Origin: an uncultured Muribaculaceae bacterium
GTDB taxonomy: Bacteria > Bacillota_I > Bacilli_A > RF39 > UBA660
Assembly (NCBI GenBank): GCA_964407685.1
Contig: CAYOWI010000003.1
Span: forward strand, 1,681 to 65,680
Reading direction: 5' to 3'
Length of the DNA stretch: 64,000 nt
A program made the translations under genes and the position numbers. Numbering within the stretch: the stretch's first letter is position 1; each line of letters starts with the position of its first letter. The notes under the pieces are model-generated. The model saw only the letters and a list, made by a program, of their open reading frames with translations, did not search any database and was not told the origin of the DNA. Positions 29,591 to 49,751 of the stretch are shown here, one piece after another.

Positions 29591-29667
29591 TGGTGACGCG
29601 TATGGGATTTGAACCCATGAATGCCGCCGTGAAAGGGCGGTGTGTTAAACCACTTCACCAACGCGCC
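29591..29667 (-). tRNA. tRNA-Glu (UUC)
   Basis: Hand-folded cloverleaf. Acceptor GGCGCGU/ACGCGUC, anticodon arm CCGCC-CUUUCAC-GGCGG, T-loop GGTTCAAAT, encoded CCA. Confidence 0.9.
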
Positions 29668-29682
29668 AGTTTAAATATAAAA

Positions 29683-29759
<77 letters not shown>

Positions 29760-29933
29760 ATTTCATAATACTGGTAAAACTGACTATTTAATTCTACTAT
29801 ATAAAAATTAAAAATGCAATATATTTTTTAATTTTTTTATAATTTTAGTGCAACTGAAACAAAATATGTGTCGAAATTATTGATTAAACTACTAATTAAA
29901 CGCATCATACACTTTAAAGAAAGGATGGTTATA

Positions 29934-31915: not shown

Positions 31916-32862
31916 ACGGATATTTAGGCATAGACATAGGATCAATATCCACTAAAGGAGTTATAATTGATGAAGAAAAAAATATGATAGCAAGTACGTA
32001 TCTTTGGACAGAAGGTAATCCTCTCGAAGCAGTTAAAAAGGTTTTAAATGATTTAAAAAAACAAATAAGTGGTAAAAACATCAATGTTATGGGGGTTGGA
32101 ACGACTGGTTCGGCCAGAAAATTAATAGGAATCATGATTGGAGCTACCAGCATAAAAAATGAAATAACCGCGCATGCCATAGGAACCTTATCACTGCATC
32201 CTTCAGTTAAAACAATAATAGAAATTGGAGGTCAGGACTCTAAAATAATATTATTGGAAGATGGTATCGTTACCGATTATGCCATGAATACCTTATGCGC
32301 CGCGGGTACTGGGAGTTTTCTTACAAGCCAATCGAAAAGATTAGGAGTTGACGTAGAAGAGTTTGGAAAAATTGCTCTGCAAAGTAAACGTCCAACAAAC
32401 ATAGCAGCAAGGTGTACCGTATTTGCCGAAAGCGACTTGGTTCATAAAATACAAATGGGTTATCAAAGGGAGGATATTATAGCAGGGCTATGTAATAGTG
32501 TTGCATCAAATTATCTAAATAATGTTGCTAAGGGTAAAAAAATAAAAGAACCAATCATTTTTCAAGGTGGCGTAAGTAAAAATGTAGGAGTTAAAAAAGC
32601 TTTTGAAAAAATACTCAAATCACAAATAATAACTGACGAAAACGGTCACCTTATGGGAGCATTTGGGAGTGCCATTTTATCTATGAATAAAAAACTTGAA
32701 AAACCATTTAATTTTGAAGTTTCCAATAGTAATTTTGAAACAAAAGGAATAGAATGTAATGGTTGTCCTAATCATTGTGAGATAATTGTCGTTAAAAAAG
32801 ATGGAAAAAAGTTAGATTCTTGGGGTAATAGATGTGAAAAAGGAAAAGTGACAACAAAATAA
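31912..32862 (+). CDS. BcrAD/BadFG-family (HgdC-like) ASKHA ATPase activase with a C-terminal Cys cluster
   Basis: Motifs GIDIGSISTKGV, GVGTTGSA, EIGGQDSK, CAAGTGSF; C-terminus CNGCPNHC...C. Confidence 0.85.
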   Translation: MNGYLGIDIGSISTKGVIIDEEKNMIASTYLWTEGNPLEAVKKVLNDLKKQISGKNINVMGVGTTGSARKLIGIMIGATSIKNEITAHAIGTLSLHPSVKTIIEIGGQDSKIILLEDGIVTDYAMNTLCAAGTGSFLTSQSKRLGVDVEEFGKIALQSKRPTNIAARCTVFAESDLVHKIQMGYQREDIIAGLCNSVASNYLNNVAKGKKIKEPIIFQGGVSKNVGVKKAFEKILKSQIITDENGHLMGAFGSAILSMNKKLEKPFNFEVSNSNFETKGIECNGCPNHCEIIVVKKDGKKLDSWGNRCEKGKVTTK

Positions 32863-32880
32863 TCATGTTGCCACTTTTTA

Positions 32881-33548
32881 TTAAATAATAAACTCGTTAT
32901 AATTAGTAACTTTACCATTTATCATAAACATATATTCTCTATTTAAATATTGGGCTGCTTTCTTTGGAATTAACACGGCTTTATTCCAATTTTTAAGAAT
33001 GTGTTTATCAAAATCTTCATTGGTTAAATAATTTACAATCAAATAATTATTATTTATTTTAATATCTACCCTTTTAATTTTTTGAATTTCCTTGTTCATT
33101 TTATCCTGAATACTAGAATCTTTTGTTCTATGAAATGTTACGTCTAATTTATCCGCAAGTACTAATGATAAACCTATTAGTGTTTGTATGTTATCACCAT
33201 TAGAATGATCCTTAATTGCTTGCTCTAATATAATTAATTCATCTTTTTTAAAATCAGCTGGATTAAGGTACTTTTTAAAAATCCTGCTACTTTCTAAGGC
33301 ATGATCTACTTTATTTCCTTTACATAATCCTATGTCATGAAGTAAAGCTGCTACCATTCCAAGCTCAATCGTTCTTTTATCAACACCAAGTTGTGATAAA
33401 ATAATTTGTACATAATTAGCAACCCTTTTATAATGGCCTAATCCGTGCTCCCAATCCCATTTGCCATCATAATAAATTTTATATTTTCTATTTTTTTAAC
33501 AATGGTCAAATAGTTTTCATTATTTAACAAGTTTTCATATATGTTCAT
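32881..33548 (-). pseudogene. HD-domain phosphohydrolase, frameshifted at an A7 run
   Basis: ATG 33548 opens MNIYENLLNNENYLTIVKK, then the frame stops. The rest (..YYDGKWDWEHGLGHYKRVANY...AALLHDIGL...) is in another frame and joins track ORF 32881..33357. One extra A in the A7 run (T7 on the plus strand, 33491-33497) restores a single ORF. Confidence 0.75.
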
Positions 33549-33571
33549 AACTATACCTCTTATGTAATTTA

Positions 33572-33595
33572 AAACCGAGCTTTTAGGCTCGGTTT
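33572..33595 (-). terminator. Hairpin downstream of tRNA-Ala
   Basis: AAACCGAGC-ttttag-GCTCGGTTT, a perfect 9-bp stem. Confidence 0.45.
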
Positions 33596-33604
33596 ATTTA
33601 CAAA

Positions 33605-33681
33605 TGGTGGAGCTTAAGGGATTCGAACCCTTGACCTCCTCGGTGCAAGCGAGGCGCTCTAGCCAGCTGAGCTAAAGCCCC
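33605..33681 (-). tRNA. tRNA-Ala (UGC)
   Basis: GGGGCTTTAGCTCAGCTGG... with the G3:U70 identity pair; anticodon arm CCUCG-CUUGCAC-CGAGG; encoded CCA. Confidence 0.9.
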
Positions 33682-33768
33682 ACAAAATATGCATTTAATT
33701 AATGCATATTAATAATATCAAAAAGATTAATAAAAATCAATACCTAAATTAATTTTTTTTATTGTTAA

Positions 33769-34083
33769 TTATAATTGCTGAAATTCTTGCTCTATCATGT
33801 TTAGTTTTTGAGTGATTTTATTTTGATCTGATTGTTCTAAGCAATACCAACCTTTCTTAAACATTAAATTATATATTTCTCTTTGAAGATCACTCACATC
33901 ATTAAACATGTCACAATAATCTTCATATAAATCATTATTACTAGCTTCCGTTAAAGCTACCGCATAATCCTTTACCATTGCCTTTTCAATAGTAAGTACA
34001 GTTGTAATGTAATCTTTGTCATTCATTTCTTTAGTTTCTGGAACTTCTGTTTTTGGGTTGCTTATCTTATTATTCACTTTCAT
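33769..34083 (-). CDS. CotF-family spore coat protein
   Basis: 104 aa; the Coat_F-like sequence DKDYITTVLTIEKAMVKDYAVALTEASNNDLY... Confidence 0.7.
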   Translation of the reverse strand: MKVNNKISNPKTEVPETKEMNDKDYITTVLTIEKAMVKDYAVALTEASNNDLYEDYCDMFNDVSDLQREIYNLMFKKGWYCLEQSDQNKITQKLNMIEQEFQQL

Positions 34084-34088
34084 TCTCC

Positions 34089-34295
34089 TTATCCTAAAAT
34101 ATTTAATACTGCCCTGCAGTGTTCTTTATGAACCTCTGCTACTTTTATTAACAATTGCTTTATTTCTTCATCTTCTACTTCATTTACAAAATGATTGCAT
34201 AGTTTACAAGCGTTAAAGTTCCAATTATAAATATCACTTAAATAATCTAAATCCTTTCCTGAAATCATACTTGGAACACTTTCATAATTTTGCAT
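34089..34295 (-). CDS. Small protein co-transcribed with cotF-like gene (68 aa)
   Basis: The ORF ends 5 nt upstream of the CotF-like gene; no motif recognised. Confidence 0.4.
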   Translation of the reverse strand: MQNYESVPSMISGKDLDYLSDIYNWNFNACKLCNHFVNEVEDEEIKQLLIKVAEVHKEHCRAVLNILG

Positions 34296-34374
34296 ATTTT
34301 TTCCTCCTTCACTTTTATTATGTGAATAATAATTATTTTATAAACAACAAAAAGAGCATTTTTAGCCCTTCTTG

Positions 34375-34722
34375 TTATAAACAATTAACCGCACTTTCAA
34401 TTAAGATTTCCAATTCCGTATCACTAACGTTTATCTTCTTTTCTTTCATCCATTCCAACGACTTTTCTAGAGCCTTGTTCTTTTTTTCAGCACAACTTAA
34501 ATCTTTACCTACTTGTTCAACATATTTAACCGTTTTTTCAACTATATCTCTTTTAACTTTATCCTGAATAAAGTCCTGATATAAGTTTTTAATCCTTATT
34601 CCTAAATACCCAATAACACCGGTAATTACTGTACTTACAATTTGAATAAGATTATCAGAAATTAAACCAATAATATCACTCAAGCCAAACTCCCCCAAAT
34701 TTAAATAAAGATGCATCTTCAT
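34375..34722 (-). CDS. Phage holin, LL-H-like family (single N-terminal TM)
   Basis: TM VSTVITGVIGYLGI followed by a charged helical tail (VKYVEQVGKDLSCAEKKNKALE), as in LL-H holins. Isolated gene beside tRNAs. Confidence 0.5.
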   Translation of the reverse strand: MKMHLYLNLGEFGLSDIIGLISDNLIQIVSTVITGVIGYLGIRIKNLYQDFIQDKVKRDIVEKTVKYVEQVGKDLSCAEKKNKALEKSLEWMKEKKINVSDTELEILIESAVNCL

Positions 34723-34796
34723 TATTATTTTATTCTAAACAAAAAACAAGGCCATTACTTATGTCCATTGTTTTTACTTTTTATGTTTTATAATTA

Positions 34797-34873
<77 letters not shown>

Positions 34874-35166: not shown

Positions 35167-36936
35167 TCATTTTATAGAGCATAATATAAATTCAGAACCA
35201 TACATTTCTTCTTGTTCCTCTAACCAATCAAATACATTATCTAAACTAACATTTGATATATTTATACTCTTAAATATCGGATATCTATTATCAATATAAT
35301 CCTTTATTAAAGAATATTTATAATCATTCTTATCATCTGAATTAACAGCAAAATTTAGCAATTCATTTATTTCATTAGTAGATGTAAATTTGACTCTTGT
35401 ATATAATGAAAGCATTTGATTAAATCCTACTTTTTGTTCTCTATTCGTATTATAGTATTTATCAAAAATCGACACTGCATCCTCTTTTTTATCCTTATTA
35501 GAATGAGTATAATGAAATGTTGTAGTTAACTGAGAGTGTCCCATTAGGCGTTTAACATCAGCAGGGGCTAAGTTAGGATTTTCATTCATTTGAATTGTAC
35601 AATAACTATGTCTCAACCCATGTAGAGAAACATTTTTTATATATGGATATTTTTTTCTGAAATCTAACCATTTACTACTAGGTGTATCAGGAAACATAAT
35701 ACCTCCAGTTTTACTTAAAAATAAATTTTTTGGAGGTATATAACCTTTAATTTTTCTTTTAAATCTAGTTATTATTCTTAAACGTAGTTTTAAATATTCC
35801 TTAATAACTTCTGTACAGAAAATTGGAATAGGAATATCACGGACACTGCCTTTTGTTTTAGTTTCCTTCTCTATTACTTTACGTTTTTTTTCGTCCCATA
35901 CAACTGCCCTTCTAATACTAATAACATTATTATTAAAATCTATATCATCAGTATGAAGTCCGATTAATTCTCCTCGTCTTACACCAGTGCATATCGCAAT
36001 AGTAAACAAAGTTTCAGTTAAAATATCTTCAGTTTTTAATAGTTCTAATACTTCTAATAATTCCTCCCTATTATAAGATAATTTTTCTTCTTTAGATACA
36101 CCTGGTGCTTTAACCTTTAAAACTGGATTCTTTTCTATATAGTCCCATTCTTGTGCTTTATTTAATATCTTTCTCAACAAACAATAAATATTATTTATTG
36201 TTGATAATGATAACTTAACTTTATTACCATTTTTATCTGGTCTTAAACTATATTTTTCTTTAAGTGAATTAACTATTCTTTGAACTGTTAATACGCTTAT
36301 TTTATCTAAATATACATTTGCAAGTTCAGGAAGTATATAATTTTTCAAATCTACTTTTCCACTCCTTACTGTTGTAGGGCTAAGTTCCTTTTCTGCATAT
36401 TCTTTATAATAAATTCTTGCAAAATCAATAAACTTAATATTCCTACTATTATTTTTCTTTAACTTTAATTCTGCTAATTTTTTATCTCTTTCCTTTCTTG
36501 ATTGTGCTAATGTTCCCTCAAATACTGCAGAATAATAATCTCCTTTTTTTCCATTAGAGCCTCCTTTTCTAATGAATATTCTATATTTCTTTCCTTTTTC
36601 AATTTCATATATATATTTATCAACTTTTTTTGTATTTGTTATAGTTGTTTTATTATTTGGCTTCTTTGGTTTGTTATTTACTTTCTTAGATTTATCTTTA
36701 TTATAATCTTCCAAAATACAAGTAATTTCACTCTTTTTTTCTAAAAATAAACCATTTTCCTCTAACTTCTTATCTCTTAAAAATATAGCATCTTCAAGTG
36801 ATCCATCTATATATTGATCAAAGTTAATTCTTTTATTGTTTTTTTTATCAACTTTTAAAAATTTAACTCTATATTTATCTTCAGATACATAATAAATATA
36901 TTTTTCTACTCTTTCTTGCATAATTTCTCCGTTCAA
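35167..36936 (-). CDS. int: Tyrosine recombinase/integrase (589 aa, extended N-terminus)
   Basis: Catalytic-domain signatures TGVRRGEL (Arg), HGLRHSYCT, GHSQLTTTFHYTH (His/Tyr). Confidence 0.9.
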   Translation of the reverse strand: MNGEIMQERVEKYIYYVSEDKYRVKFLKVDKKNNKRINFDQYIDGSLEDAIFLRDKKLEENGLFLEKKSEITCILEDYNKDKSKKVNNKPKKPNNKTTITNTKKVDKYIYEIEKGKKYRIFIRKGGSNGKKGDYYSAVFEGTLAQSRKERDKKLAELKLKKNNSRNIKFIDFARIYYKEYAEKELSPTTVRSGKVDLKNYILPELANVYLDKISVLTVQRIVNSLKEKYSLRPDKNGNKVKLSLSTINNIYCLLRKILNKAQEWDYIEKNPVLKVKAPGVSKEEKLSYNREELLEVLELLKTEDILTETLFTIAICTGVRRGELIGLHTDDIDFNNNVISIRRAVVWDEKKRKVIEKETKTKGSVRDIPIPIFCTEVIKEYLKLRLRIITRFKRKIKGYIPPKNLFLSKTGGIMFPDTPSSKWLDFRKKYPYIKNVSLHGLRHSYCTIQMNENPNLAPADVKRLMGHSQLTTTFHYTHSNKDKKEDAVSIFDKYYNTNREQKVGFNQMLSLYTRVKFTSTNEINELLNFAVNSDDKNDYKYSLIKDYIDNRYPIFKSINISNVSLDNVFDWLEEQEEMYGSEFILCSIK

Positions 36937-38419: not shown

Positions 38420-38575
38420 TACAAAATTTCCTTTCTTTTATTTTTATATTGTAATTAATGAGGGTTTTAGTTTACCCACAACTCCCGTGCTAATAGGGAT
38501 TGACTACCTAGCTTTTTTTAAGTGCTAACATATCGGTGATTTTTAACACTGCCAAATTGTCAAAGATCAACCTGT

Positions 38576-38645: not shown

Positions 38646-39116
38646 TTATTTTAAAGTTTCTTTTAATTTTTTTAATGCAATATTTAAAGTGTATTGAATT
38701 GATCTAATATCTACATTTTCTTCATCTGCTATTTGTTTCTGTGTCATATCTTCAAAATAATACTTTTTAATTCTCCTTTTTTGTATTTCTGGAAGTAAAT
38801 CTATCGCTTTCTTTAAATCTTCAAAAGTAGATTTCTGAATGACATAATCTTCTAATCCAATAGACTTATTCAATGCTCTTGCTTCAAGATTATTTTCAGT
38901 TAGTTCAGAATGTTCAATATGACGATCAAATTCATTCATTTCACATATATCATCAAGTTCAAATCCATCCATAACATTAAAAACCACTTCACTTACGTCC
39001 ACCATTCTTAAAATTCCCATACCGTCTTTAAATAAAACTCTAAAGCTATCCTTATCGTCTATATACTCCAATGTATAAGGATTATCATTCTTTTTACGCC
39101 TTTTTGGTCTTTTCAT
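38646..39116 (-). CDS. ICE sigma-70 region-4-like HTH regulator, copy 1 (156 aa)
   Basis: C-terminal region-4 pattern LPEIQKRRIKKYYFEDMTQKQIADEENVDIRSIQYTL..ALKKL. N-terminal RRKKNDNPY and HIEHSELTENNL motifs are typical of the sigma-like proteins of Tn1549/CTn-type ICEs. Confidence 0.7.
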   Translation of the reverse strand: MKRPKRRKKNDNPYTLEYIDDKDSFRVLFKDGMGILRMVDVSEVVFNVMDGFELDDICEMNEFDRHIEHSELTENNLEARALNKSIGLEDYVIQKSTFEDLKKAIDLLPEIQKRRIKKYYFEDMTQKQIADEENVDIRSIQYTLNIALKKLKETLK

Positions 39117-39573: not shown

Positions 39574-39906
39574 TTAACAATCATTATTTTTTTCAATATT
39601 CTCTCTAACCTTTTCTAGTACTTGATAGTAATCAATTTCTTCTATAATATTACTGGTATATAGCAAGAATTGAGAAATAATATCAATTGCTTCATTTATA
39701 TATAATCTTACATCTATTTCTATATCATTATTAATATTCCTTGGTACACTATACCTTAATAATTTTTCCTTAGTTAACTTTGCTAAATCTCTTTCATTTT
39801 CATCAATTTGCTTTTCAATATTTTTTGTTAATACACCTATTAAATTATTATATTCTTTTTTATTTAACATTAATTTTATTGGTGGTATTCTCTTTGAATA
39901 TGCCAT
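39574..39906 (-). CDS. Hypothetical protein (110 aa)
   Basis: ORF between the two sigma-like genes, with its own terminator. Confidence 0.45.
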   Translation of the reverse strand: MAYSKRIPPIKLMLNKKEYNNLIGVLTKNIEKQIDENERDLAKLTKEKLLRYSVPRNINNDIEIDVRLYINEAIDIISQFLLYTSNIIEEIDYYQVLEKVRENIEKNNDC

Positions 39907-40010: not shown

Positions 40011-40529
40011 TCACTTATTTCCCCACTCATAAAAGAAATTGCAGACACTTTTTTTATTTTTTAATATTTTTTTTAAATTTTTCTTAGCCCTCTCTAAAAT
40101 AATATGTACTGATTGATGAGTACTATTTTCTTCTTTAGCAATTTCAATTTCGTTTTTACCTTCAAAATAATATTTTTTTATTCTTCTCTTTTGAATAATA
40201 GGTAGTTTTTCAATAGCCATATATAGTTCGGAAAAAGCTATTTCTTTAATAACTTGTTCTTCTACACTTTCAACTTTATAATTTGTTCTTTTATATAATC
40301 TCTCATCGTCTAATTCAGAATGCTCTATATGTCTTTCATATTCATGCATTTGTGATATATCAATTAATTCAAAACTATTAAATGCATTATAAACTTCTTC
40401 ACTTATCTCAACTGTTTTATTTTCTTTAATACCATTATTAAAAGAAATAATATATATTTTCTCATTTTTATTATATTGTAATATATAAGGATTATCTCTA
40501 TCCTTTCTTCTTTTTGGATGATTATCCAT
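40011..40529 (-). CDS. ICE sigma-70 region-4-like HTH regulator, copy 2 (172 aa)
   Basis: Paralog of 38646..39116. Shared motifs RRKDRDNPY, ERHIEHSELDDERL, LPIIQKRRIKKYYFEGKNEIEIAKEENSTHQSVHIIL.RAKKNL. Confidence 0.7.
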   Translation of the reverse strand: MDNHPKRRKDRDNPYILQYNKNEKIYIISFNNGIKENKTVEISEEVYNAFNSFELIDISQMHEYERHIEHSELDDERLYKRTNYKVESVEEQVIKEIAFSELYMAIEKLPIIQKRRIKKYYFEGKNEIEIAKEENSTHQSVHIILERAKKNLKKILKNKKSVCNFFYEWGNK

Positions 40530-40534
40530 TTTTT

Positions 40535-40571
40535 CCTCCTATCAATAATTTTTTTAATTATTGATAGGAGG
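40535..40571 (-). promoter_or_regulatory. Perfect 16-bp SD-sequestering hairpin (or operator) upstream of sigma-like gene 2
   Basis: Minus-strand RNA CCUCCUAUCAAUAAUU-aaaaa-AAUUAUUGAUAGGAGG-aaaaa-AUG. The SD AGGAGG is fully paired with the anti-SD CCUCCU. Confidence 0.55.
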
Positions 40572-40597
40572 CGAACGTTCCTTCATCAAAGTGTATG

Positions 40598-40650
40598 AAA
40601 AAAGACTATATTTCATATTTTTTTTAAAACGAAATATAGTCTTTTTTAAT
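40598..40650 (-). terminator. Intrinsic terminator in the leader of sigma-like gene 2
   Basis: AAGACUAUAUUUC/GAAAUAUAGUCUU stem (40598-40647) followed by U6 on the minus strand. It lies 26 nt upstream of the SD hairpin. Confidence 0.55.
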
Positions 40651-40907
40651 TTAATATCAAATAATATTATTATTAGAAAAAAGTAGTATTTCATATTTCG
40701 CAATCCTCAAAATTGCAAATACCATAATTATTGGTAGAGAAAATACTACTTTAGATTCAGTCCAATAAGCATAACTTGTAATATATAACTGAAGAAAGAA
40801 TTTACTTCTATACTACTTATATTAATACTAATTATTACTTAATTTTTAAAACAATGCTACTTACTTTCCCCCATATATAATACATGCATAGGCATTGCTA
40901 CTCCTAC

Positions 40908-40935
40908 ATTATACTACAAAATTCTACATAATCAA
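40908..40935 (-). promoter_or_regulatory. SigmaA-type promoter immediately after the holin stop codon
   Basis: Minus strand TTGATT(40935-40930)-16 nt-TATAAT(40913-40908). Confidence 0.45.
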
Positions 40936-40941
40936 TTAAAT

Positions 40942-42751: not shown

Positions 42752-44995
42752 TTAATACCATGCACGGTTTACTCCTGAACTAGCATATTCTAGTCCAACG
42801 CATGCATATCCAGAGAAAGTTGTAAAAGTACTACTTCCTTTACGTTTTATTCCATTAATTCGTGTAGCCCACGGTCTTGTCCCTCCTGGATTAACTAAAT
42901 TACTTCGATTTATTCTAATATAATCTCCATTTTGAAGAGTCCCAACATAATTACCATTTGGATCTATGTAAACTACTGGTTTATTAATATAAAAATCACG
43001 ATATGATGAACTATCATAATTATGAAGAATATAACTATCAGTAGAAGGTACATATTCAACGCAAGTAAATGGTTCATGCCCTACTAATATTTGAGCATCA
43101 ACAACATCGTCATTAGCTGGGTCATCTTGCATACCTGCGGGAATATATTGTTCTCTAATATATCCCGTTTTTACATCTGTTCCATCATTAAACATAACCT
43201 TATGAACATTATCATTTTGAGGTTGCTCAACCGCATATCTTACATACATATCATGTGGTCTTATATATCCAATAATATTACCAGCTGGATTATATTCAAA
43301 CACTTCTGGTTCAGAAGGTAAATTAATCTCTTTTCTTTCATATACTGGAACCGATTCTTGAGTCATATTGATTAAAATTCTACAATGTCTTTCTAATGTG
43401 TGTGAATTATCATTAGTTTTAGAATATTCTTGAGATATTCCACTATATTGCCCTGAATATCCGTTTTTATCTATTTCTATAGATTGACCATTTGAAGAAA
43501 TTGTCGTCGTTGCAAACTGATCTAATGCCCAATTATCTGGTATAGAAAATCCAAGGTTTCCACTATAACCAGTAGACATATCGCTAACAAAACTACTACA
43601 AGCATATCCAGCTTTGCATACTCTAGAACATACATTTCTAGTTCCATAAACCCCAATCCTATATTTTGCTTTACCATTGAAAACCAAAGATTTACGAACA
43701 GCTTCAAAATAAGGAAGTATATTATTTGTAATTTCAGTATCTGTTGCATCATAATCTACCGCAAAATAAATAATTGTACCAAACTGTAATTGTAAATTAT
43801 CAGCTGCTATTGCCGCTGCCGATGCATCTGTTGTTCCTTGCGTCGCATTAAAATATGAAAGATATGTCCCAGAAGTTTGGAATATAGGGAATAATCTAAT
43901 TCCATTTCCAAACAATACTTGAATTTCACTTGAGGTTATTTTTTTATCTTTCCCTCCAGAAGCATTTGTTAAATATCTTGCAATATATCTATAATTTTTA
44001 TTTAATAATACCTGAACATTACTGCTATTAATTTTAGTCATACAGTCGCAGGCAATAGCATTTCTATCTGTGTCACCACAACTTACTAATAAAGATAACC
44101 ATGTAGTATAATCAAGATTCCCTGTTTGTGGTATTCCATACTTTGATTGAAATGCTTGAATAACACTTACTGTTAGATTCGATGTTATATCTCCATTACC
44201 AAATCCATTAAAATATAAAGCAATATTAGCTATTTTTTTGAATTTATTAATTTTATCGGAACTATAATTTTGTCCACTATAATTAGTTCCAGAATATGAA
44301 CCATTTGATAAAATTGTTGGTAAACAATTTTTTGTTGATGGGCCACAATTTCCATTAGCAACAGAAGTCGGCATTCCCTCTTCCGCTTGAACCGCATATA
44401 GTACCGCTTTACTTGTATTTCTTCCATATATTCCGTCGCACGGTGATAGTCCAATATATGCTTCATAATTAGCATTCAAATATCTTTGCATGGAAATTAT
44501 GTTTTGTATTCTCTCGGATTGATCATATGAATAAAAATAATCCATAGACATTAAAGCCTTCATAACATTAAGTGTTACAGTTGAAGAAGATGCATTAATT
44601 CCAGCATCTTGTTTTAGTTTTTTTATAGCAGAACCTGTTCCTGAATAAAAATTACATGTTGGAGCTCCAGTTCCTATAGAATATCCTTTACATAATAAGC
44701 CACCTTGAATAATTCCATAAATATTTTTCTTTGTCTCATCATCGTCAGCCTGTTGCTGAACACCATTTGGATACTTATTATTAAACGCTGATATTGTACC
44801 AGCACCAAAATTATCTGCTGTTGCAGTAATACCTAATTCAATTTGTAATGCATGAAGCAATGCATAAATTGTAGGCCACCCTGTTTTTCCGTTTTCTTGT
44901 ATTTCAGTATATCCAGTTTTACCTCGATATGTTTCATTAACCCACTCTTGTACTGCGAGTACATATGGATCTCCAGTTGTAGCTTTTTCAGCCAT
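42752..44995 (-). CDS. 747-aa leaderless multidomain cell-wall protein: PG-binding repeats, a DUF1906/Rv2525c-like glycoside-hydrolase-like domain and an unknown ~200-aa C-terminal region
   Basis: Starts MAEKATTGDPYVLAVQEWVN with no signal peptide or TM. PG_binding_1-type repeat VSVIQAFQSKYGIPQTGNLDYTTWLSLL. GH-like core YRYIARYLTN..KKITSSE..GIRLFPIFQ...IIYFAVDYD...RIGVYGTRNVC...DNWALDQF. Confidence 0.75.
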   Translation of the reverse strand: MAEKATTGDPYVLAVQEWVNETYRGKTGYTEIQENGKTGWPTIYALLHALQIELGITATADNFGAGTISAFNNKYPNGVQQQADDDETKKNIYGIIQGGLLCKGYSIGTGAPTCNFYSGTGSAIKKLKQDAGINASSSTVTLNVMKALMSMDYFYSYDQSERIQNIISMQRYLNANYEAYIGLSPCDGIYGRNTSKAVLYAVQAEEGMPTSVANGNCGPSTKNCLPTILSNGSYSGTNYSGQNYSSDKINKFKKIANIALYFNGFGNGDITSNLTVSVIQAFQSKYGIPQTGNLDYTTWLSLLVSCGDTDRNAIACDCMTKINSSNVQVLLNKNYRYIARYLTNASGGKDKKITSSEIQVLFGNGIRLFPIFQTSGTYLSYFNATQGTTDASAAAIAADNLQLQFGTIIYFAVDYDATDTEITNNILPYFEAVRKSLVFNGKAKYRIGVYGTRNVCSRVCKAGYACSSFVSDMSTGYSGNLGFSIPDNWALDQFATTTISSNGQSIEIDKNGYSGQYSGISQEYSKTNDNSHTLERHCRILINMTQESVPVYERKEINLPSEPEVFEYNPAGNIIGYIRPHDMYVRYAVEQPQNDNVHKVMFNDGTDVKTGYIREQYIPAGMQDDPANDDVVDAQILVGHEPFTCVEYVPSTDSYILHNYDSSSYRDFYINKPVVYIDPNGNYVGTLQNGDYIRINRSNLVNPGGTRPWATRINGIKRKGSSTFTTFSGYACVGLEYASSGVNRAWY

Positions 44996-45073
44996 ATTTT
45001 TTCATCTCCTTTAGTATTAAAATAATCATTTAATATATAGAAAAATCAAAAATACCGTATTTAAATCCGTTCT

Positions 45074-45144
45074 AATTCACAATATTAAATTAATTGACAA
45101 TTAAATTTATGAACATGCGATTAATGTACCTTATTGTCCGGACA
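45074..45144 (-). promoter_or_regulatory. Conserved cargo-operon control module, copy A
   Basis: 28-nt box AATTCACAATATTAAATTAATTGACAAT (45074-45101; contains the 11-bp palindrome AATTGACAATT, 45092-45102), then 33 nt, then the perfect palindrome TGTCCGGACA (45135-45144). The box starts 78 nt upstream of ATG 44995. It is near-identical to copy B. Confidence 0.6.
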
Positions 45145-45332
45145 TATAAAGTTATATTAATATACTTTTATAAATAAAAAACAGTGCTAGTCAATTAAAA
45201 CGTAAGTTTAAATATTAACTAACACCGCATATTCACCATATCTATTTGTCAATATAATGATATAATATTTTTCATATATAAGTCAATCTTTTTTTATATT
45301 TTTTAATAATATTTTTTCACATAATTAAATCA

Positions 45333-46400
45333 TCAACTATCTTTAATCATTTTTATAATAGTTATTCGTTTTATTTTAATATATATTAAAGTAACAACTA
45401 ATACAAGCATAAGTAAAATAGCAAAAAAATTTTTCATTATTATAATAAAGTCAAATAAATTTTTTATATCTAACAATGAAATAAATAATAAATTTATAAA
45501 CCCAATAGTAATAGTTGAAATTATCAAGGAAAACAACAGTATAAAAATAAAGTATGATAATATCAAAATTAAAATAAATATATTACTATATCCAAATGTT
45601 TTTAAGAGCGCTATACTATAGCTTTTTTCTGCAATGTTTGAGAATAATAAAAATAAAAACATTAACAATAAAGTTATATAACATAATAAGAAAAATCCTC
45701 TTAAAATATTATTAATATCCTTGTATGTTTGTACCTCATTTTGATATGAATCATCGATAAATTCTATTGAACAATCATTATCTTTTAATTTTTTTTCAAC
45801 TTTTTTATAACTAGACCTATTATTAATTAATACAATATATCTATTACTATTTTTAATTAATTTATTGATATTGTTATCGTTAGATATATATATGTAGTAA
45901 TTATCACTCCCGGTATTAGAATATACTCCAACAATGGTTAATTCTATACTTTGATTCTCTATAATAACTTTTATTTTTTTATTTATAACATCTTCTATAT
46001 TTTTATTATTTTTACTTAAAAATTTTTCCGAAACAATGGCTTCATTATATCCTAGATTATTAATTTTTCCTTTAACTAAATTTAATTTAATTAAGGGGTT
46101 TATAAATTTAAAACTACATTTATCAAATTTATTACATTTAGCATAAAATGAGCCTGTATTATAAGATACATCTTGAACATTCGGAAGGGATTTAATTAAT
46201 TTAGATTTATCCGTCCCATCATTACTAATAACATACATTGCTCTATTCTCAATTTTATTTATTATTTGTATATCTACTTTCCTTTCAGTTGAATTTATAA
46301 TTAATGCTATAATATTTATTACAAAAATCATGAAAGAGAATAATAAAATATAATATTTAGCTTTATCTGTTTTAATAGTTTTAAATAATAAATTAAACAT
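45333..46400 (-). CDS. ABC transporter permease, FtsX/MacB-like (355 aa)
   Basis: N-terminal TM, a ~200-aa extracytoplasmic domain and three C-terminal TMs (FtsX topology). Confidence 0.7.
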   Translation of the reverse strand: MFNLLFKTIKTDKAKYYILLFSFMIFVINIIALIINSTERKVDIQIINKIENRAMYVISNDGTDKSKLIKSLPNVQDVSYNTGSFYAKCNKFDKCSFKFINPLIKLNLVKGKINNLGYNEAIVSEKFLSKNNKNIEDVINKKIKVIIENQSIELTIVGVYSNTGSDNYYIYISNDNNINKLIKNSNRYIVLINNRSSYKKVEKKLKDNDCSIEFIDDSYQNEVQTYKDINNILRGFFLLCYITLLLMFLFLLFSNIAEKSYSIALLKTFGYSNIFILILILSYFIFILLFSLIISTITIGFINLLFISLLDIKNLFDFIIIMKNFFAILLMLVLVVTLIYIKIKRITIIKMIKDS

Positions 46401-46409
46401 AAAAATACA

Positions 46410-47603
46410 TTACCATTTTTTTATTTTATATCTAAGGAAGAAAGTCATTATAAGGCAAATAATAGATGATAAGAGTAAGTTTAAGTACATGGCTATATAA
46501 TTTATTTTAATTCTTAAATCATAAAACATTATTTTTTCAGAAATATATAACCTTTGAAAAATTATTATTATAATATTATAAAATAATATTGAACATAAAA
46601 AAGCAAATATAAATTCCAACATAAGTTCTACAATATATATTTTCGTTATTTGTGAATTTGAATAACCAGTTGCTTTCATAACTGAATAATCTTTTTTTCT
46701 TTTATTTATTTTTTTTATAGACATATAAGTTATTAATGCTATTGATAAAACTACAATGATTCCTGATACTATAAATATCAATGAAATAACATTATTGCCT
46801 AGTTCTTTATTTATATGTAAAGTAGGCATAATTATTTCAATCCCGTCTTTCTTCATTTCTTGCACTACTAAATTTTCATTATCTACATTATCTATTACCA
46901 TATACACAAAATTCTTATACGGATTTTTTTCTAAAAATATATCAGGTTGATATTTTTTATTTAGTTTTTTAACAACATCTAATTTTGTATAACATACATT
47001 CCCTTCTGTATGATTTGCTTTAGCATCGTATAAACCAACAATTTTAAACCGTTCCAAACTAGTAGAAGTAAGGAACGATAAATTTATATTTTTTCCTAAT
47101 TTATTAGTTATATCTATGCTTTTAGATGTCAGATAATCCTTTTGGTATTTTTCTACAAAAGGGTAAAATTGCTTTGCACAAATAATAGGATTTTCATTTA
47201 ATGATACGCTGTTCAAGTCATTACCATATATCAACTTTATAGGATCAGAAATAGTTCCTATAAGGTGTATACTGTTATTTTCATTAACAATACCAGTATC
47301 CATCACCCGCATTGATATCATATAGGATATTTCATCAAATGCATCAACTACGTGATTATAACTTTTAATTTTTTCTATTACACTATCTATATCATACTTT
47401 TTATTATTGAATCTAACTATATACGTTCTATAATCTACTAACTTTTTTACAGTATTATTCCAATAATTATTTAACGATTTTTTAAATGAAAAGCATAATA
47501 AGGTTAAAGCAAACATAAGACCAATAAGTAAAATACTTACTATATTTTTTTTATCTCTAATGAAATTTTTAAAACCAATAGTAGCTAAATATTTATTTTT
47601 CAT
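46410..47603 (-). CDS. ABC transporter permease, FtsX/MacB-like (397 aa)
   Basis: Same topology as the downstream permease; 4-nt overlap with the ATPase gene. Confidence 0.7.
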   Translation of the reverse strand: MKNKYLATIGFKNFIRDKKNIVSILLIGLMFALTLLCFSFKKSLNNYWNNTVKKLVDYRTYIVRFNNKKYDIDSVIEKIKSYNHVVDAFDEISYMISMRVMDTGIVNENNSIHLIGTISDPIKLIYGNDLNSVSLNENPIICAKQFYPFVEKYQKDYLTSKSIDITNKLGKNINLSFLTSTSLERFKIVGLYDAKANHTEGNVCYTKLDVVKKLNKKYQPDIFLEKNPYKNFVYMVIDNVDNENLVVQEMKKDGIEIIMPTLHINKELGNNVISLIFIVSGIIVVLSIALITYMSIKKINKRKKDYSVMKATGYSNSQITKIYIVELMLEFIFAFLCSILFYNIIIIIFQRLYISEKIMFYDLRIKINYIAMYLNLLLSSIICLIMTFFLRYKIKKW

Positions 47604-48274
47604 CTTTCTTCACCTCTCAATACTCCGCTTTCAATATATATAATTTTATCAGCATATTTAGTAATTGATTCACTATGACTTACTACAACTACACATTTAC
47701 CTATTTTAGATAACTTTTTCAATAAGTTAAATATTATTTGCTCATTTCTATTATCTAAATTCCCGGTTGGTTCGTCAGCGAGAATCATTTGTGGATTATT
47801 TACCAACGCACGAGCAATAGCAACACGTTGCTTTTCTCCTCCAGATAATTCTTTGGGAAAGTGATTTGCTCTATCACACAAATTAATCATATTTAATAAA
47901 TCTTTAACTATTTTTCTCTTTTCTATTATTAATAAATCATTATTTATTAATAAAGGTAACATAATATTTTCATATACCGTTAAATTTTCATTTAAATAAC
48001 ACTCTTGAAAAACAAAACCGATTTCACTTAGTCGTAATATGTTTTTTTCTTTTTCTGTAAGAGTAGAAGTATTATGACCATTAATACATAAAATACCAGA
48101 AGTGGGCTTATCTAAAAGCCCACTTATATTAAGCAATGTAGATTTCCCACTTCCTGAAGGTCCAATTATTGCGTAAAATTTACCGGTTTCAAATTTCATA
48201 CTTACATTATTTAATGCTAAAATTTCTTTTTTTGAATTTGTAAATTTTTTATATATACCATTTAATTCAATCAC
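47600..48274 (-). CDS. ABC transporter ATP-binding protein (MacB/LolD-type)
   Basis: Walker [13 protein letters not shown], signature [15 protein letters not shown], Walker [12 protein letters not shown]. Confidence 0.92.
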
Positions 48275-48288
48275 AATATTTCCTCCTT

Positions 48289-48738
48289 CTATGCTGCTGG
48301 ATACATATAGACTTCGCTAGATTTTACGCCATCATAATAGTTTCGTCCACCAGTAGAACTATTATAAATATCACTAAAGAAAGTATAAGATCTATAACCA
48401 GCTTCATATGTTCCCATTCGTACTTCTTTACAAGTACCGTAAGTATACACAGACGTATTATATTTGTAAGCACGTCCTGTAGCCACATCCCATAATCCTA
48501 GTTCCATAGTTGTAGAACCACTTTTTCGTACACTACCACTTGAAGTATTAAAACCATCTACAGCAACACTAATTTTATTTAATCCTTGGGCATAATTACG
48601 TGATGCGCCATTATGTATAGTACCATACGGCATATTAAGAGTTGATTTCCATCCAGCAGCACTAACACTACCAGTTAATGATAAAGATGTAATTATACCA
48701 AGTAATAATACAAATACCATGTTTCTTATTCTTTTCAT
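48289..48738 (-). CDS. Secreted beta-rich protein (149 aa), candidate bacteriocin-like or ABC-associated factor
   Basis: Sec signal MKRIRNMVFVLLLGIITSLSLTGSVSA/AG. The mature ~120 aa is rich in G, S, T and Y. It is the first gene of the ABC operon. Confidence 0.6.
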   Translation of the reverse strand: MKRIRNMVFVLLLGIITSLSLTGSVSAAGWKSTLNMPYGTIHNGASRNYAQGLNKISVAVDGFNTSSGSVRKSGSTTMELGLWDVATGRAYKYNTSVYTYGTCKEVRMGTYEAGYRSYTFFSDIYNSSTGGRNYYDGVKSSEVYMYPAA

Positions 48739-48807
48739 AATTTACCTCCTTTCTTAATATTTTTATTTAATATTTAGAAAGAACCAAATCCGAAATATAA
48801 CCATTAT

Positions 48808-48877
48808 AATTCATAATATTAAATTAATTGACAATGAAAAACTTAAATATTTTTTATTTTCTATTACTGTCCGGACA
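48808..48877 (-). promoter_or_regulatory. Conserved cargo-operon control module, copy B
   Basis: AATTCATAATATTAAATTAATTGACAAT (48808-48835; 27/28 identical to copy A), then 32 nt, then TGTCCGGACA (48868-48877). The box starts 69 nt upstream of ATG 48738. Confidence 0.6.
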
Positions 48878-48976
48878 AGTAATATTAAAATAAAAAGTAT
48901 TGATCATTAATAATCTAAATCAATAGAATTATAATAATCAATACCGTATATTTTCCGTTCTTTAATTGTCAATTTT

Positions 48977-49005
48977 ATAATAGCATTTTTATTTTTTATT
49001 GTCAA
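48977..49005 (-). promoter_or_regulatory. SigmaA-type promoter upstream of the secreted-protein/ABC operon
   Basis: Minus strand TTGACA(49005-49000)-17 nt-TATTAT(48982-48977). Confidence 0.45.
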
Positions 49006-49018
49006 TGTCAAAATTTAT

Positions 49019-49549
49019 TTAATTAATATAATTTAATTTTAATTTTTCTGTTTTGCAAATATCATTCCTGTAACAATATTTTATTTCAAATTTAAATGAA
49101 CTTTTAAAATCATCTTTCGTTGTTTCTAAAAATGAGTCTGATTCCCCATATTTATCTTTACTGTATTTACCAGTTTCTTCTATAGACAACTCTTTGATTT
49201 TATTTTCAAGACTCGATTCATTTAAGTCAATAAATTCGTTGGTAAACATTGATATATCATTAAAACTTAAATTAACAGAAAATTTTTCAATTTCGTTTTG
49301 TTTATCTATATTTTTTATAATTTTAAAGTTAGTAAGTAAAATATACCGTTGATCTTCATCTCCATAATATACTTTACCTGTTTCGAATCCGAAATGTTCA
49401 GATGTTCCTGTAAATTTATAAGTAACATTACTAGGGGTATCATAACCAAAATCATCTTTGAAATTTATAAAACATTTGGATTCATTACTACATCCTGAAA
49501 TAATTAATACACTAAAAATCACAACTATACTTAATAAAATTTTTTTCAT
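49019..49549 (-). CDS. Lipoprotein (176 aa)
   Basis: MKKILLSIVVIFSVLIISGC lipobox. SD GGAGA precedes ATG 49549; the track start at 49579 is upstream. Confidence 0.65.
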   Translation of the reverse strand: MKKILLSIVVIFSVLIISGCSNESKCFINFKDDFGYDTPSNVTYKFTGTSEHFGFETGKVYYGDEDQRYILLTNFKIIKNIDKQNEIEKFSVNLSFNDISMFTNEFIDLNESSLENKIKELSIEETGKYSKDKYGESDSFLETTKDDFKSSFKFEIKYCYRNDICKTEKLKLNYIN

Positions 49550-49751
49550 AATTTTTCTCCTCTGATAGAAATATATCATAACTACTTATTTTTTTCAACC
49601 TAGAAAAAGATTTCCAAATAAAAAGAGCACAAATATTTTCATCATTTTTACTATATATATTTTGAAAATACTTTTAATTAAATCAATATTCGACAAATTA
49701 ATACAAACAAATTTGTTATTATACAAAACTTGTAAGGGGGATTATTAAAAA

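Follow-up and report, generated by a model that had tools for sequence, protein, structure and literature searches.

The block shared by two cargo operons is probably part of a folded 5' leader RNA with its own promoter and early terminator

In the Firmicutes, the LicT/SacY-RAT, PyrR, and TRAP attenuators combine a constitutive promoter with a promoter-proximal intrinsic terminator whose 5' base is overlapped by a short conserved motif, so that a bound protein could decide termination; in some leaders of these types, a hairpin over the Shine-Dalgarno sequence adds control of translation. In the lambda PR'-tR' (Q) system, a strong constitutive promoter with a close terminator yields a short RNA ahead of lysis-type genes. 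The 5'-terminal stem-loops of the Bacillus aprE leader and of ermC shield mRNA from 5'-end-dependent RNases. On the conjugative element pLS20, conAn2 combines terminal inverted repeats with stem-loops and a short GC-rich tract (PMC8191782), and a zipper-type attenuator uses long-range pairing around a central hairpin (PMC13401043). Enterococcal Bac41 joins two wall-active effectors with immunity and a positive regulator (bioRxiv 10.1101/2020.11.20.391417).

Here, we analyzed a block shared by the regions upstream of two operons in a 64-kb stretch of DNA, the whole of which we call the window. The block probably belongs to a conserved 5' leader RNA that folds and that has a strong promoter and an early terminator of its own, rather than to the DNA operator set proposed in a sequence-only reading of the same DNA. 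Like the Firmicutes attenuators, the leader has the promoter-terminator pair, the conserved motif at the terminator base, and the hairpin over the Shine-Dalgarno sequence. Its parts form a compact set: consensus promoter, early terminator, 5'-terminal closing helix, and invariant 8-nt loop.

Extent, context, and conservation of the shared block

The shared elements were recovered where they had been described. A 28-nt box lies at 45074-45101 (copy A) and 48808-48835 (copy B), identical at 27 of 28 positions, 33 nt (A) and 32 nt (B) from the palindrome TGTCCGGACA (45135-45144 and 48868-48877) and 78 nt (A) and 69 nt (B) from the start codon; a AATACCGTAT..TCCGTTCT segment is also found in both copies. 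These are the sole two TGTCCGGACA sites in the window, even with 1 mismatch allowed, compared with 0.26 expected, and 1 of 100 shuffles reached two. The homology is wider than first noted, as both intergenic regions align over ~300 nt with 77% column identity. A covariance model built from relatives matches the window exactly twice, at 48826-48970(-) with 87 bits and at 45092-45250(-) with 76 bits.

The 11-mer AATTGWCAATT within the box is not enriched in the whole window (6 sites at <=1 mismatch versus 7.1 expected). A further palindrome copy claimed at 38555-38565 does not match even at 1 mismatch, falls outside the covariance-model matches, and is not a copy of the element. Palindrome sites at 48964-48974 and 45244-45253 do exist and are the 5' ends of the two leaders; that at 48997-49007 is likewise present and is the -35 hexamer of the copy-B promoter.

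The proposal of a dedicated control region, common to both operons and conserved in position, held. Conservation in related elements, which had been set as a test, was found: the block is kept upstream of the corresponding genes in gut-metagenome relatives, ~25 distinct members of which show a leader of roughly 200 to 260 nt (~235 nt in copy B, 258 nt in copy A). The description of the two operons as otherwise unrelated did not hold, since both belong to one co-inherited module that encodes a glycoside-hydrolase lysin, an M23 peptidase, a holin, a secreted protein with ABC/FtsX components, and a sigma-like protein. This module appears to be of the cell-wall-lysin/immunity type carried on mobile elements of gut bacteria. 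Leader copies number exactly two in the window and up to three in relatives, always directly upstream of module genes, and in some relatives the M23 peptidase gene is also preceded by one. Homologues of the 747-aa protein are common on Enterococcus plasmids; the leader was absent upstream of two distant homologues examined, which are encoded on plasmids of Clostridium argentinense and Melissococcus. Module-bearing mobile elements are very common in human-gut metagenomes, with one module protein indexed in 468 blocks of a metagenome collection.

Searches of the window with Rfam 15 at the gathering threshold returned tRNAs only, and at E<=10 the two intergenic regions gave only chance-level matches of 14 to 15 bits. 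If our reading is correct, the leader would be an uncatalogued structured RNA with no Rfam family. A blastn search of plasmid and phage collections with the leader gave short AT-rich chance matches or nothing, and a protein scan of viral contigs found no relatives of the 149-aa protein. The pattern TGTCCGGACA-N26-38-ATTGWCAATTA matched twice among 185,579 species genomes, both times by chance in GC-rich DNA, and none of the 17 matches from a pattern scan of viral contigs fit the covariance model.

Promoter, terminator, and folded structure

In relatives, the box is preceded, at a distance of ~150 nt, by a near-consensus sigma-A promoter. TTGACW-17/18-TAnnnT is conserved in ~20 distinct leaders, mostly with TG, and GACAA begins exactly 6 nt past the -10 element in all leaders; the G of GACAA (45250 in copy A, 48970 in copy B) is the predicted transcription start. 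The box palindrome had been thought to sit on a -35 element, but the box reads TTGTCA on the gene strand and the conserved promoter lies further upstream. The box does not overlap a core promoter, as the TTGTCA-to-TAATAT spacing of 3 to 12 nt is incompatible with a -35/-10 pair. A second promoter with TTGTCA as its -35 or TAATAT as its -10 element is ruled out by this spacing and by the lack of a conserved partner element. The promoter and the two strands of the closing helix, P1, are as follows.

45257..45286, minus strand: copy A promoter P1, with -35 TTGACT (45286-45281), 18-nt spacer, and -10 TATCAT (45262-45257); promoter scan 10/12; a counterpart of the form TTGACW-17-TAnnnT in every relative
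48977..49005, minus strand: copy B promoter P1, TTGACA-17-TATTAT with TG; promoter scan 11/12, the best of the region
45240..45250, minus strand: copy A predicted +1 and 5' strand of helix P1 (GACAAAUAGAU), paired with 45096-45108 in the minimum-free-energy and centroid folds; formerly the partial palindrome site 45244-45253
48959..48970, minus strand: copy B predicted +1 (48970) and 5' strand of helix P1 (GACAAUUAAAGA); formerly the 11/11 palindrome 48964-48974
45096..45108, minus strand: copy A 3' strand of helix P1 (AAAUUUAAUUGUC), overlapping the AATTGACAATT box; from covariation and fold
48830..48842, minus strand: copy B 3' strand of helix P1 (GUUUUUCAUUGUC); from cognate pairing and fold

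Helix P1 joins the 5'-terminal nucleotides to the box (..UUGUC). The AATTGWCAATT symmetry, on which the view of the box as a conserved palindrome depended, is broken in the relatives L014, L006B, and L027A, whereas complementarity of the box to the first 8 to 15 nt of the leader is kept through compensatory and G-U changes. In L014, A1-U replaces G1-C, and in L053A a 15-bp helix from nt +1 has a wholly different sequence (GAUGAUUGAGUUUUA / UAAAAUUUGAUUAUC). If the RNA reading is correct, short "palindromes" in raw sequence can be two strands of one long-range RNA helix.

Between the strands of helix P1 lie the terminator-like hairpin T1 and a second hairpin, P3. T1 begins at about nt 22 and, across 20 leaders, has the sequence features of an intrinsic terminator, with dG of -11 to -21 kcal/mol and 7 to 9 U in the next 9 nt; a simple terminator scanner missed it because its loop exceeds 8 nt. 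Compensatory changes occur at 6 of 8 pairs of its stem. At its 5' base lies a motif, X1, that recurs downstream as X2.

45172..45227, minus strand: copy A hairpin T1 (45227-45182) and U-run (45181-45172), terminator-like; dG -18.8 kcal/mol, 8 U in 9 nt
48887..48945, minus strand: copy B hairpin T1 (48945-48897) and U-run (48896-48887); dG -17.7 kcal/mol, 8 U in 9 nt; from covariation
45225..45239, minus strand: copy A X1 motif YGG-N8-CGG (AUGGUGAAUAUGCGG), whose second CGG is the base of T1; GG and CGG invariant in alignment A3
48944..48960, minus strand: copy B X1 motif GAACGGAAAAUAUACGG; from the alignment
45055..45072, minus strand: copy A X2 motif GAACGG-N8-ACGG, the AATACCGTAT..TCCGTTCT segment described above; same-sense similarity to copy B X1
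48790..48805, minus strand: copy B X2 motif (AAUGG-N8-UCGG); from motif comparison among leaders
45127..45152, minus strand: copy A hairpin P3, seen in the copy A fold, with apex GUCCGGAC at 45136-45143, which corresponds to the TGTCCGGACA site at 45135-45144
48850..48896, minus strand: copy B hairpin P3, with apex GUCCGGAC at 48869-48876 and the U-run paired to an A-rich tract further downstream

In the second CGG of X1, both G's are invariant while the pairing partner of each varies between C and U, which suggests sequence recognition besides pairing. L053A and L057A lack the first YGG of X1, and X2 is degenerate in several B-type leaders. Two identities for these motifs were dropped: A-type X1 as an RfaH ops element, as no NusG paralogue was found, and the X motif as a CsrA site, as YGG does not fit the A(N)GGA consensus.

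TGTCCGGACA had been regarded as a free-standing operator, but its flanks covary as a hairpin stem: in P3 they pair at -5.4 kcal/mol with cognate and -2.3 kcal/mol with non-cognate partners (permutation p<5e-5). The dyad symmetry of the GTCCGGAC core is conserved among relatives, and pairing alone does not explain why GUCCGGAC and GACAA/UUGUC are invariant. Many leaders have a mini-ORF (M-S-G-Q/L-stop) that spans the palindrome, but it has no Shine-Dalgarno sequence, lacks a start codon in several alleles (AGTCCGGACA types), and was set aside as incidental. Pairing between the P3 loop and the X motifs was rejected, being of just 3 to 5 bp and inconsistent between alleles.

The structure as a whole is recovered from the alignment of relatives, in which RNAalifold finds helix P1, T1, and the P3 apex. 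In the named structure, 90 to 91% of cells pair, versus 80% in shuffles (0 of 500 reach the observed value) and 34 to 53% with slid partners, and double changes occur at 13 pairs, although the clade sampled is narrow and some covariation counts therefore reflect shared ancestry. In the P1 extension (p=1e-4) and in the T1 arms (p<5e-5), as in P3, pairing is better between cognate than between non-cognate strands. Differences of the G-U/U-G kind outnumber A-C/C-A by 30 to 4 in the helices, which points to an RNA from the gene (minus) strand. Whole-leader folding z-scores are -3.99 (copy A) and -4.94 (copy B), with all helices in both the minimum-free-energy and the centroid folds; the AT-rich leader sequence also permits many weak alternative pairings.

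Downstream of the closed domain, a further hairpin covers the ribosome-binding site, and most leaders whose 3' half is present pair the Shine-Dalgarno sequence in their minimum-free-energy fold. A short element between the domain and this hairpin, UUUAAUAUU, is conserved in nearly all leaders, 6 to 8 nt ahead of X2.

44993..45054, minus strand: copy A hairpin sequestering the ribosome-binding site, with UUUUUCU (45045-45039) paired to the Shine-Dalgarno sequence AAAGGAG (45012-45006) and UAUUUUU to the start-codon region; ATG 44995-44993; in the minimum-free-energy and centroid folds
48736..48789, minus strand: copy B hairpin sequestering the ribosome-binding site, with CUUUCU (48781-48776) paired to AGAAAGGAGG; Shine-Dalgarno sequence 48751-48745; ATG 48738-48736
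45081..45089, minus strand: copy A UUUAAUAUU ("b"), complementary to AAUAUUAAA in the downstream hairpin
48815..48823, minus strand: copy B UUUAAUAUU ("b"); from motif comparison

A b:b' switching role for UUUAAUAUU might be envisaged; its complementarity to AAUAUUAAA is weak evidence because AAUAUU is self-complementary.

Proposed mechanism and competing explanations

Each copy probably acts in cis as a structured 5' leader RNA transcribed from the minus strand by its own near-consensus sigma-A promoter, and this structure is the well-supported part of the reading. T1 would form ~22 nt after the start and, being a canonical intrinsic terminator, should end most transcripts as a 65- to 85-nt RNA. 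Polymerase that reads through would then make hairpin P3, with GUCCGGAC at its apex, after which the box would pair with the 5'-terminal nucleotides as helix P1 and close a three-helix domain. The downstream hairpin would occlude the Shine-Dalgarno sequence and, in copy A, the start codon as well. Tandem YGG..CGG motifs are placed right at the 5' base of both regulatory hairpins, X1 at T1 and X2 at the sequestering hairpin, and a trans-acting factor, encoded by the module or the host, that bound them would relieve termination and open the ribosome-binding site. The 5'-terminal helix would meanwhile shield read-through mRNA from 5'-end-dependent decay. Because the same leader precedes both, the lysin and the secreted-protein/ABC operons would be switched jointly. 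The leader most likely serves attenuation combined with translational control.

L027A lacks X1, T1, and the sequestering hairpin, which leaves the promoter, the 5'-terminal helix, and GUCCGGAC as the only universal features, so the attenuator may be an add-on. Of the regulator candidates named in the sequence-only reading, the sigma-like protein alone is linked to the module in the loci of ten relatives, together with a neighboring 110-aa protein. The former matches sigma region 4 only. The latter was considered as a candidate RNA-binding factor with a type I KH fold: its AlphaFold2 model (pLDDT 88) has the topology strand-helix-helix-strand-strand-helix, its best Foldseek matches are KH1 domains (E=0.36, TM 0.3 to 0.4), and no GXXG loop is visible between the first two helices.

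If this reading is correct, the leader would gate potentially self-lethal cargo (signal-peptide-less wall hydrolases and a holin) together with a presumed immunity/export operon and would offer a testable handle on how bacteriolysin modules stay silent and then switch on together. A bolder proposal, which we regard as rather unlikely, is a new regulatory RNA class in which a three-way junction closed by the transcript's own 5' end, with an invariant self-complementary GUCCGGAC loop, would sense a ligand or protein or dimerize by way of that loop with the sister leader and so couple read-through, mRNA stability, and translation of the lysin and immunity operons in a bacteriolysin module widespread in gut Bacilli.

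The original operator explanation, in which AATTGWCAATT and TGTCCGGACA are double-stranded DNA sites and an ICE-encoded XRE, RHH, or sigma-like regulator on the -35 element represses both operons, now seems improbable. Set in AT-rich DNA, the GTCCGGAC core is perfectly palindromic and invariant, and such invariance without covariation is typical of a protein site, but the palindrome flanks covary as a stem; in L027A, in turn, the palindrome lies at +14 with little flank pairing. What is conserved of the box is its complementarity to the 5' end and not its palindromy, the strand differences are mostly of the G-U type, which is meaningless for DNA sites, and the box lies away from the -35 element of the conserved promoter. 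An Arc-like RHH protein is encoded nearby, but neither it nor the XRE candidate has a homologue in the ten relatives' loci compared (limited flanks).

We give comparably little weight to the stretch from promoter P1 to T1 being a 65- to 85-nt RNA gene of its own, whose 5' seed (GACAAUUAAAG...) would pair in trans with the box on mRNAs from another promoter, reached by upstream read-through or from a weak TAATAT -10. Covariation cannot tell cis from trans pairing, and with its strong promoter, its 5' tail of 22 single-stranded nt, and its Rho-independent terminator the stretch is laid out like a trans-acting small RNA; moreover, the copy B 5' end matches the copy A box region over 10 nt, and a scan found no terminator between the upstream genes and the leaders. 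However, L027A has the 5'-terminal helix without T1, so no small RNA could be made there. The second promoter would have no -35 element and no TG, with TTGTCA at a variable 3 to 12 nt from TAATAT, and a transcript begun after TAATAT would be without the box.

Also doubtful, and to a similar degree, is a sensor in which the three-helix domain is a riboswitch aptamer or protein platform, T1 is mainly a structural arm, and the stability of helix P1 decides whether UUUAAUAUU pairs with the sequestering hairpin. The order of P1, UUUAAUAUU, and sequestering hairpin resembles the layout of translational riboswitches, with the conserved UUUAAUAUU directly 3' of P1 and complementary to AAUAUUAAA, and the domain covaries as a three-way junction with conserved junction and loop nucleotides. 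Those junction nucleotides are few, though, T1 is a textbook terminator with 7 to 9 U, the regulated genes suggest no candidate ligand, and L027B retains the domain without UUUAAUAUU or the sequestering hairpin.

Very unlikely is a role of the domain as a processive antiterminator RNA acting in cis, of the kind of put, EAR, conAn2, or canT, by which polymerase resists downstream terminators, including the T1 of the next leader. The leaders do lie within a single long array of co-directional genes, an antiterminator RNA acting in cis is known from Tn916-type elements (PMC11658703), and conAn2 of pLS20 shares the terminal inverted repeats, the stem-loops, and a short GC-rich tract that is essential there (PMC8191782). 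Nevertheless, there is no sequence or Rfam relation, and a Pfam scan of 20 proteins (35 to 51 kb) found no ConAn1 (PF17362). The domain could not suppress its own T1, because T1 lies inside it and is transcribed before P3 and the box.

The least credible explanation, and an extremely improbable one, is an invertible switch of the type of Clostridioides difficile cwpV, where inverted repeats surround an intrinsic terminator between promoter and gene: the box and 5' site would be recombinase repeats that flip an orientation-dependent terminator, and they do flank one between promoter and gene on elements that encode recombinases, yet the ~25 distinct alleles, which come from independent samples, all share one orientation, the repeats match well as RNA with G-U pairs but are short and imperfect in DNA terms (8/11 in L005B), and the module is found with tyrosine recombinases, with serine recombinases, or without a recombinase close by.

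Comparison with known regulatory systems

The preferred reading, a cis-acting leader with attenuation and translational control, places the locus nearest to the Firmicutes attenuators, from which it differs in several respects. It is without RAT, PyrR-box, or (G/U)AG repeats; the 22 nt ahead of T1 do not allow an alternative antiterminator hairpin to be drawn; and the LicT/SacY-RAT, PyrR, and TRAP systems have nothing that corresponds to the 5'-to-3' closing helix or to the GUCCGGAC hairpin.

Lambda PR'-tR' offers a possible analogy in that both it and the leader precede holin/wall-hydrolase-type genes, with a regulator that would come from another part of the element. Neither a Q-like protein nor a qut site was recognized here, however, T1 spans about +22 to +85 rather than lying at +194, and the structured RNA downstream of the terminator in the leader is absent from lambda.

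Like conAn2, Tn916 canT, and the zipper attenuator, the leader is a long structured leader on a Gram-positive conjugative element, but those RNAs control conjugation operons and this one controls cargo operons. The zipper attenuator pairs its upstream strand with the terminator, whereas here the 5' end pairs downstream of the terminator, and no sequence similarity between the pLS20/Tn916 RNAs and the leader was detected. As in the aprE and ermC stabilizers, the helix starts at nucleotide +1; unlike theirs, it is long-range, with ~130 to 150 nt between strands, and encloses the terminator and a second hairpin.

In the module itself, wall hydrolases without signal peptides occur together with a holin and a small sigma-70-like protein, and the module shares with the TcdR/TcdE and UviA/UviB loci a dedicated sigma factor-like protein alongside a holin, although the leader promoter looks sigma-A-dependent and not TcdR-type. 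To enterococcal Bac41 the likeness may be that of a multi-part wall-lysin set.

Anatomy and distribution of the shared upstream region

All genes surrounding the two copies lie on the minus strand, and each copy occupies an intergenic gap.

Upstream regions and their promoters
Copy A: 337-nt gap, minus strand, from the 355-aa FtsX-type permease gene (end 45333) to the 747-aa gene (ATG 44995)
Copy A promoter: 45286-45257, minus strand, from a promoter scan
Copy B: 280-nt gap, minus strand, from the 186-aa lipoprotein-like gene (end 49019) to the 149-aa secreted-protein gene (ATG 48738)
Copy B promoter: 49005-48977, minus strand, 11/12 match with TG, the top match of the region

The shared upstream block is real and significant. 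The 28-nt box and TGTCCGGACA palindromes described by the sequence-only reading, with gaps of 33 and 32 nt and start-codon distances of 78 and 69 nt, were all exact, and TGTCCGGACA has only 2 sites in 64 kb at ≤1 mismatch (0.26 expected). The homology stands; its proposed extent of ~100 nt does not, since both gaps align over their whole length. AATTGWCAATT, the palindrome within the box, is not enriched across the window (6 matches at ≤1 mismatch versus 7.1 expected), and the further copy claimed at 38555 has no match even allowing one mismatch.

We compared about 25 distinct upstream regions, including loci of relatives from metagenomes (L numbers; suffixes A and B give the leader type). On the gene strand, the 5'-to-3' order is promoter, start, X1, T1, P3, box, UUUAAUAUU, X2, and sequestering hairpin. 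The promoter consists of TTGACW, a 17-nt spacer (18 in copy A), and TAnnnT, usually with TG ahead of the -10. In every leader, GACAA follows exactly 6 nt past the -10 (AACAA in L014, GAUGA in L053A), so that transcription likely starts at its opening purine (copy A, 45250; copy B, 48970). X1 is a YGG-N7-9-CGG motif, and within its second CGG opens the 5' arm of T1, a terminator-like hairpin (-11 to -21 kcal/mol) with 7 to 9 U in the next 9 nt. P3 carries GUCCGGAC at its apex, and its stem is often formed by the T1 U-run and an A-rich tract downstream. The conserved core of the box is merely ..UUGUC, and UUUAAUAUU is a separate conserved element between the box and X2. The latter, a second YGG..CGG motif, corresponds to the AATACCGTAT..TCCGTTCT segment noticed earlier. 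Within the sequestering hairpin, the partner of CUUUCU is the AGAAAGGAG ribosome-binding site, and A-type leaders have a further pairing, of UAUUUUU with the start-codon region. Weaknesses of the proposed mechanism are that some alleles have incomplete X1 and X2 motifs and that L027A has only the promoter, helix, and palindrome.

A covariance model finds exactly two copies within the window. The control region is conserved in related elements, with one to three copies in each, every one immediately ahead of module genes; L006, L024, and L048 have a third copy, in front of the M23 gene. The third copy of L006 (3429-3700; also in L007 and L009) is visibly a duplicate of an A leader, joined to a 65- to 68-aa hydrolase N-terminal fragment, with both the palindrome (GTTCGGAC) and the X1 motif mutated. 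The A and B leaders of L014 (999-1109 and 5048-5158) are identical over about 190 nt though their downstream genes differ, which indicates gene conversion between leader copies of one element; the same process probably accounts for the 27/28 identity of the two boxes in the window. In L005 and L018-L022, a leader intact with all features accompanies a module remnant (lipoprotein-like and 149/134-aa genes and an ABC gene that is truncated and continues into an ArsC-like reading frame) inside an ordinary chromosomal neighborhood. There was no leader match in Rfam, and no copy in phage and plasmid collections, in viral contigs, in a pattern scan of species-representative genomes, or upstream of two distant hydrolase homologues on plasmids.

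Action as RNA or as DNA

Comparison among relatives favors an element that acts as RNA from the gene strand rather than as DNA. In reverse complement, the box matches the first 8 to 15 nt of the predicted transcript, with which it would form a 5'-terminal helix, P1. In L014, L006B, and L027A, the palindromy of each site is lost and complementarity between the sites is retained: G1-C is replaced by A1-U in L014, and the L027A strands read GACAACAU/AUGUUGUC. The sequence of L053A is entirely different, yet a helix of 15 bp beginning at nt +1 is still formed.

RNAalifold on 18 leaders recovered the 5'-terminal helix, T1, and the apex pairs, with double changes in 7 pairs. In the named 22-pair structure (double changes in 13 pairs), 90.3% of cells pair, compared with 80.4% in column shuffles (0/500 reach the observed value) and 34 to 48% with slid 3' partners, controls that have known limits when sequences are related. 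A covariance-model alignment including one nonseed sequence gave the same pairing picture. Cognate strands pair better than noncognate ones in the P1 extension past the invariant core (-1.9 versus -0.8 kcal/mol, p=1e-4), the P3 flanks (-5.4 versus -2.3, p<5e-5), and the T1 arms (-12.1 versus -5.8, p<5e-5). Non-Watson-Crick cells comprise 30 G-U/U-G against 4 A-C/C-A, an excess expected of RNA from the gene strand and not of DNA inverted repeats. Relative to dinucleotide shuffles, the folds of both leaders in the window are more stable by 4 to 5 standard deviations, with all named helices present in their minimum-free-energy and centroid folds.

The invariant GUCCGGAC loop may be a protein or RNA contact, and could still be a double-stranded DNA site. 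The palindromic-operator reading is otherwise largely wrong, given the covarying helices and the loss of palindromy in relatives that keep strand complementarity. A cwpV-like invertible switch is unlikely because the leaders are uniformly oriented and the repeats are imperfect as DNA.

The gene module and its candidate regulators

The two operons had been taken as unrelated; on relatives' metagenome contigs, the same gene set co-occurs in several orders. The 149-aa protein has 17 homologues (52 to 100% identity), encoded on contigs from human-gut and other metagenomes.

Genes of the module
~750- to 800-aa protein with PG_binding_1 and an Rv2525c-like glycoside-hydrolase domain
~180-aa lipoprotein-like protein
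M23/LysM peptidase
Second lipoprotein-like protein
149-aa protein
ABC ATPase and two FtsX permeases
Phage-type holin
Sigma-70 region-4 protein; 110-aa protein

Module neighbors include a tyrosine integrase (window), serine recombinases (L010, L053-L056), and ordinary chromosomal genes (L048). Shortly beyond the end of the window's element that carries the integrase (35167-36936) are four tRNA genes (29594-34873; nearest, 34800-34873), consistent with integration beside a tRNA gene. A simple terminator scan of 44900-49700 reported a single site, 48100-48125 (minus), a terminator-like hairpin of 10 pairs (5 GC) with a T-rich tail within the ABC ATPase gene.

The 747-aa protein (42752-44995) matches phrog_15213, an uncharacterized phage family (E=1.5e-161, residues 9-534 only), as well as endolysin families; its C-terminal ~210 residues have no family match. 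Neither it nor the M23 peptidase has an obvious signal peptide in translation. Homologues of the 747-aa protein were found in 567 plasmid records, including 384 from Enterococcus; the Bac41 effector BacA may be one of them. By analogy with Bac41 (bioRxiv 10.1101/2020.11.20.391417), which offers a lead, the gene set looks like a bacteriolysin-plus-immunity module.

Judged by co-occurrence, only the sigma-like and 110-aa proteins qualify as candidate factors; the XRE and Arc-like RHH proteins proposed earlier have no homologue in the ten relatives' loci compared, with limited flanks. The sigma-like and 110-aa genes come after the holin wherever it is present and the fetched sequence reaches past it, and L027 has a 110-aa homologue inside the module with no holin or sigma-like match. 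These two proteins may regulate the module that encodes them.

Candidate regulator genes in the window
38646-39116, 39574-39906, 40011-40529: two sigma-like paralogues and the 110-aa protein

A sigma-70 region-4 protein behind the module holin, usually with the 110-aa protein, was seen in L006, L010, L015, L023, L028, and L048-L058, spanning tyrosine-recombinase, serine-recombinase, and apparently nonmobile contexts. The sigma-like proteins match region 4 only, and the leader promoter gives no sign of requiring an alternative sigma factor. For the 110-aa protein, a confident structure model has the order strand-helix-helix-strand-strand-helix, reminiscent of type I KH domains; the structural match to KH is not significant, and no GXXG loop is visible between the first two helices. 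The intergenic region that separates the holin gene from the 172-aa sigma-like gene (40530-40941, minus) is conserved among relatives and contains TTTTTGTAGTATAAT, two more direct copies of AGTAGTAT (40743-40750 and 40810-40817, minus), an inverted copy (40682-40689), and a CCUCC...GGAGG hairpin in which the sigma-like gene's ribosome-binding site would be sequestered. This stretch looks like another control region, distinct from the leaders.

Predicted working and known systems

Sequence analysis of the leader shows a conserved sigma-A-type promoter, a predicted terminator of canonical form ~22 nt into the transcript, two more covarying helices, and a putative ribosome-binding-site hairpin. 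By default, transcription would terminate early, and the ribosome-binding site would be closed on any read-through RNA. Relief would come from a factor that acts at the YGG..CGG motif, which adjoins each of the two hairpins at its 5' base. In the second CGG the G's are constant while their partner alternates between C and U, a pattern that suggests recognition by sequence in addition to pairing. Since 5' stabilizers are established in Bacillus mRNAs, the 5'-terminal helix would be expected to protect the read-through mRNA. We conclude that the element is most likely a structured leader RNA not catalogued before, predicted to coregulate the operons of a mobile lysin/immunity module.

Its predicted working is closest to that of Firmicute leaders combining an attenuator with translational sequestration, and its logic resembles that of lambda PR'-tR' ahead of the lysis genes. 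In architecture the leader loosely recalls conAn2 (PMC8191782) and the pLS20 zipper attenuator (PMC13401043), but it belongs to neither kind, because no ConAn1 was found among the 20 proteins scanned from 35-51 kb and the pairing topology differs from that of the zipper.
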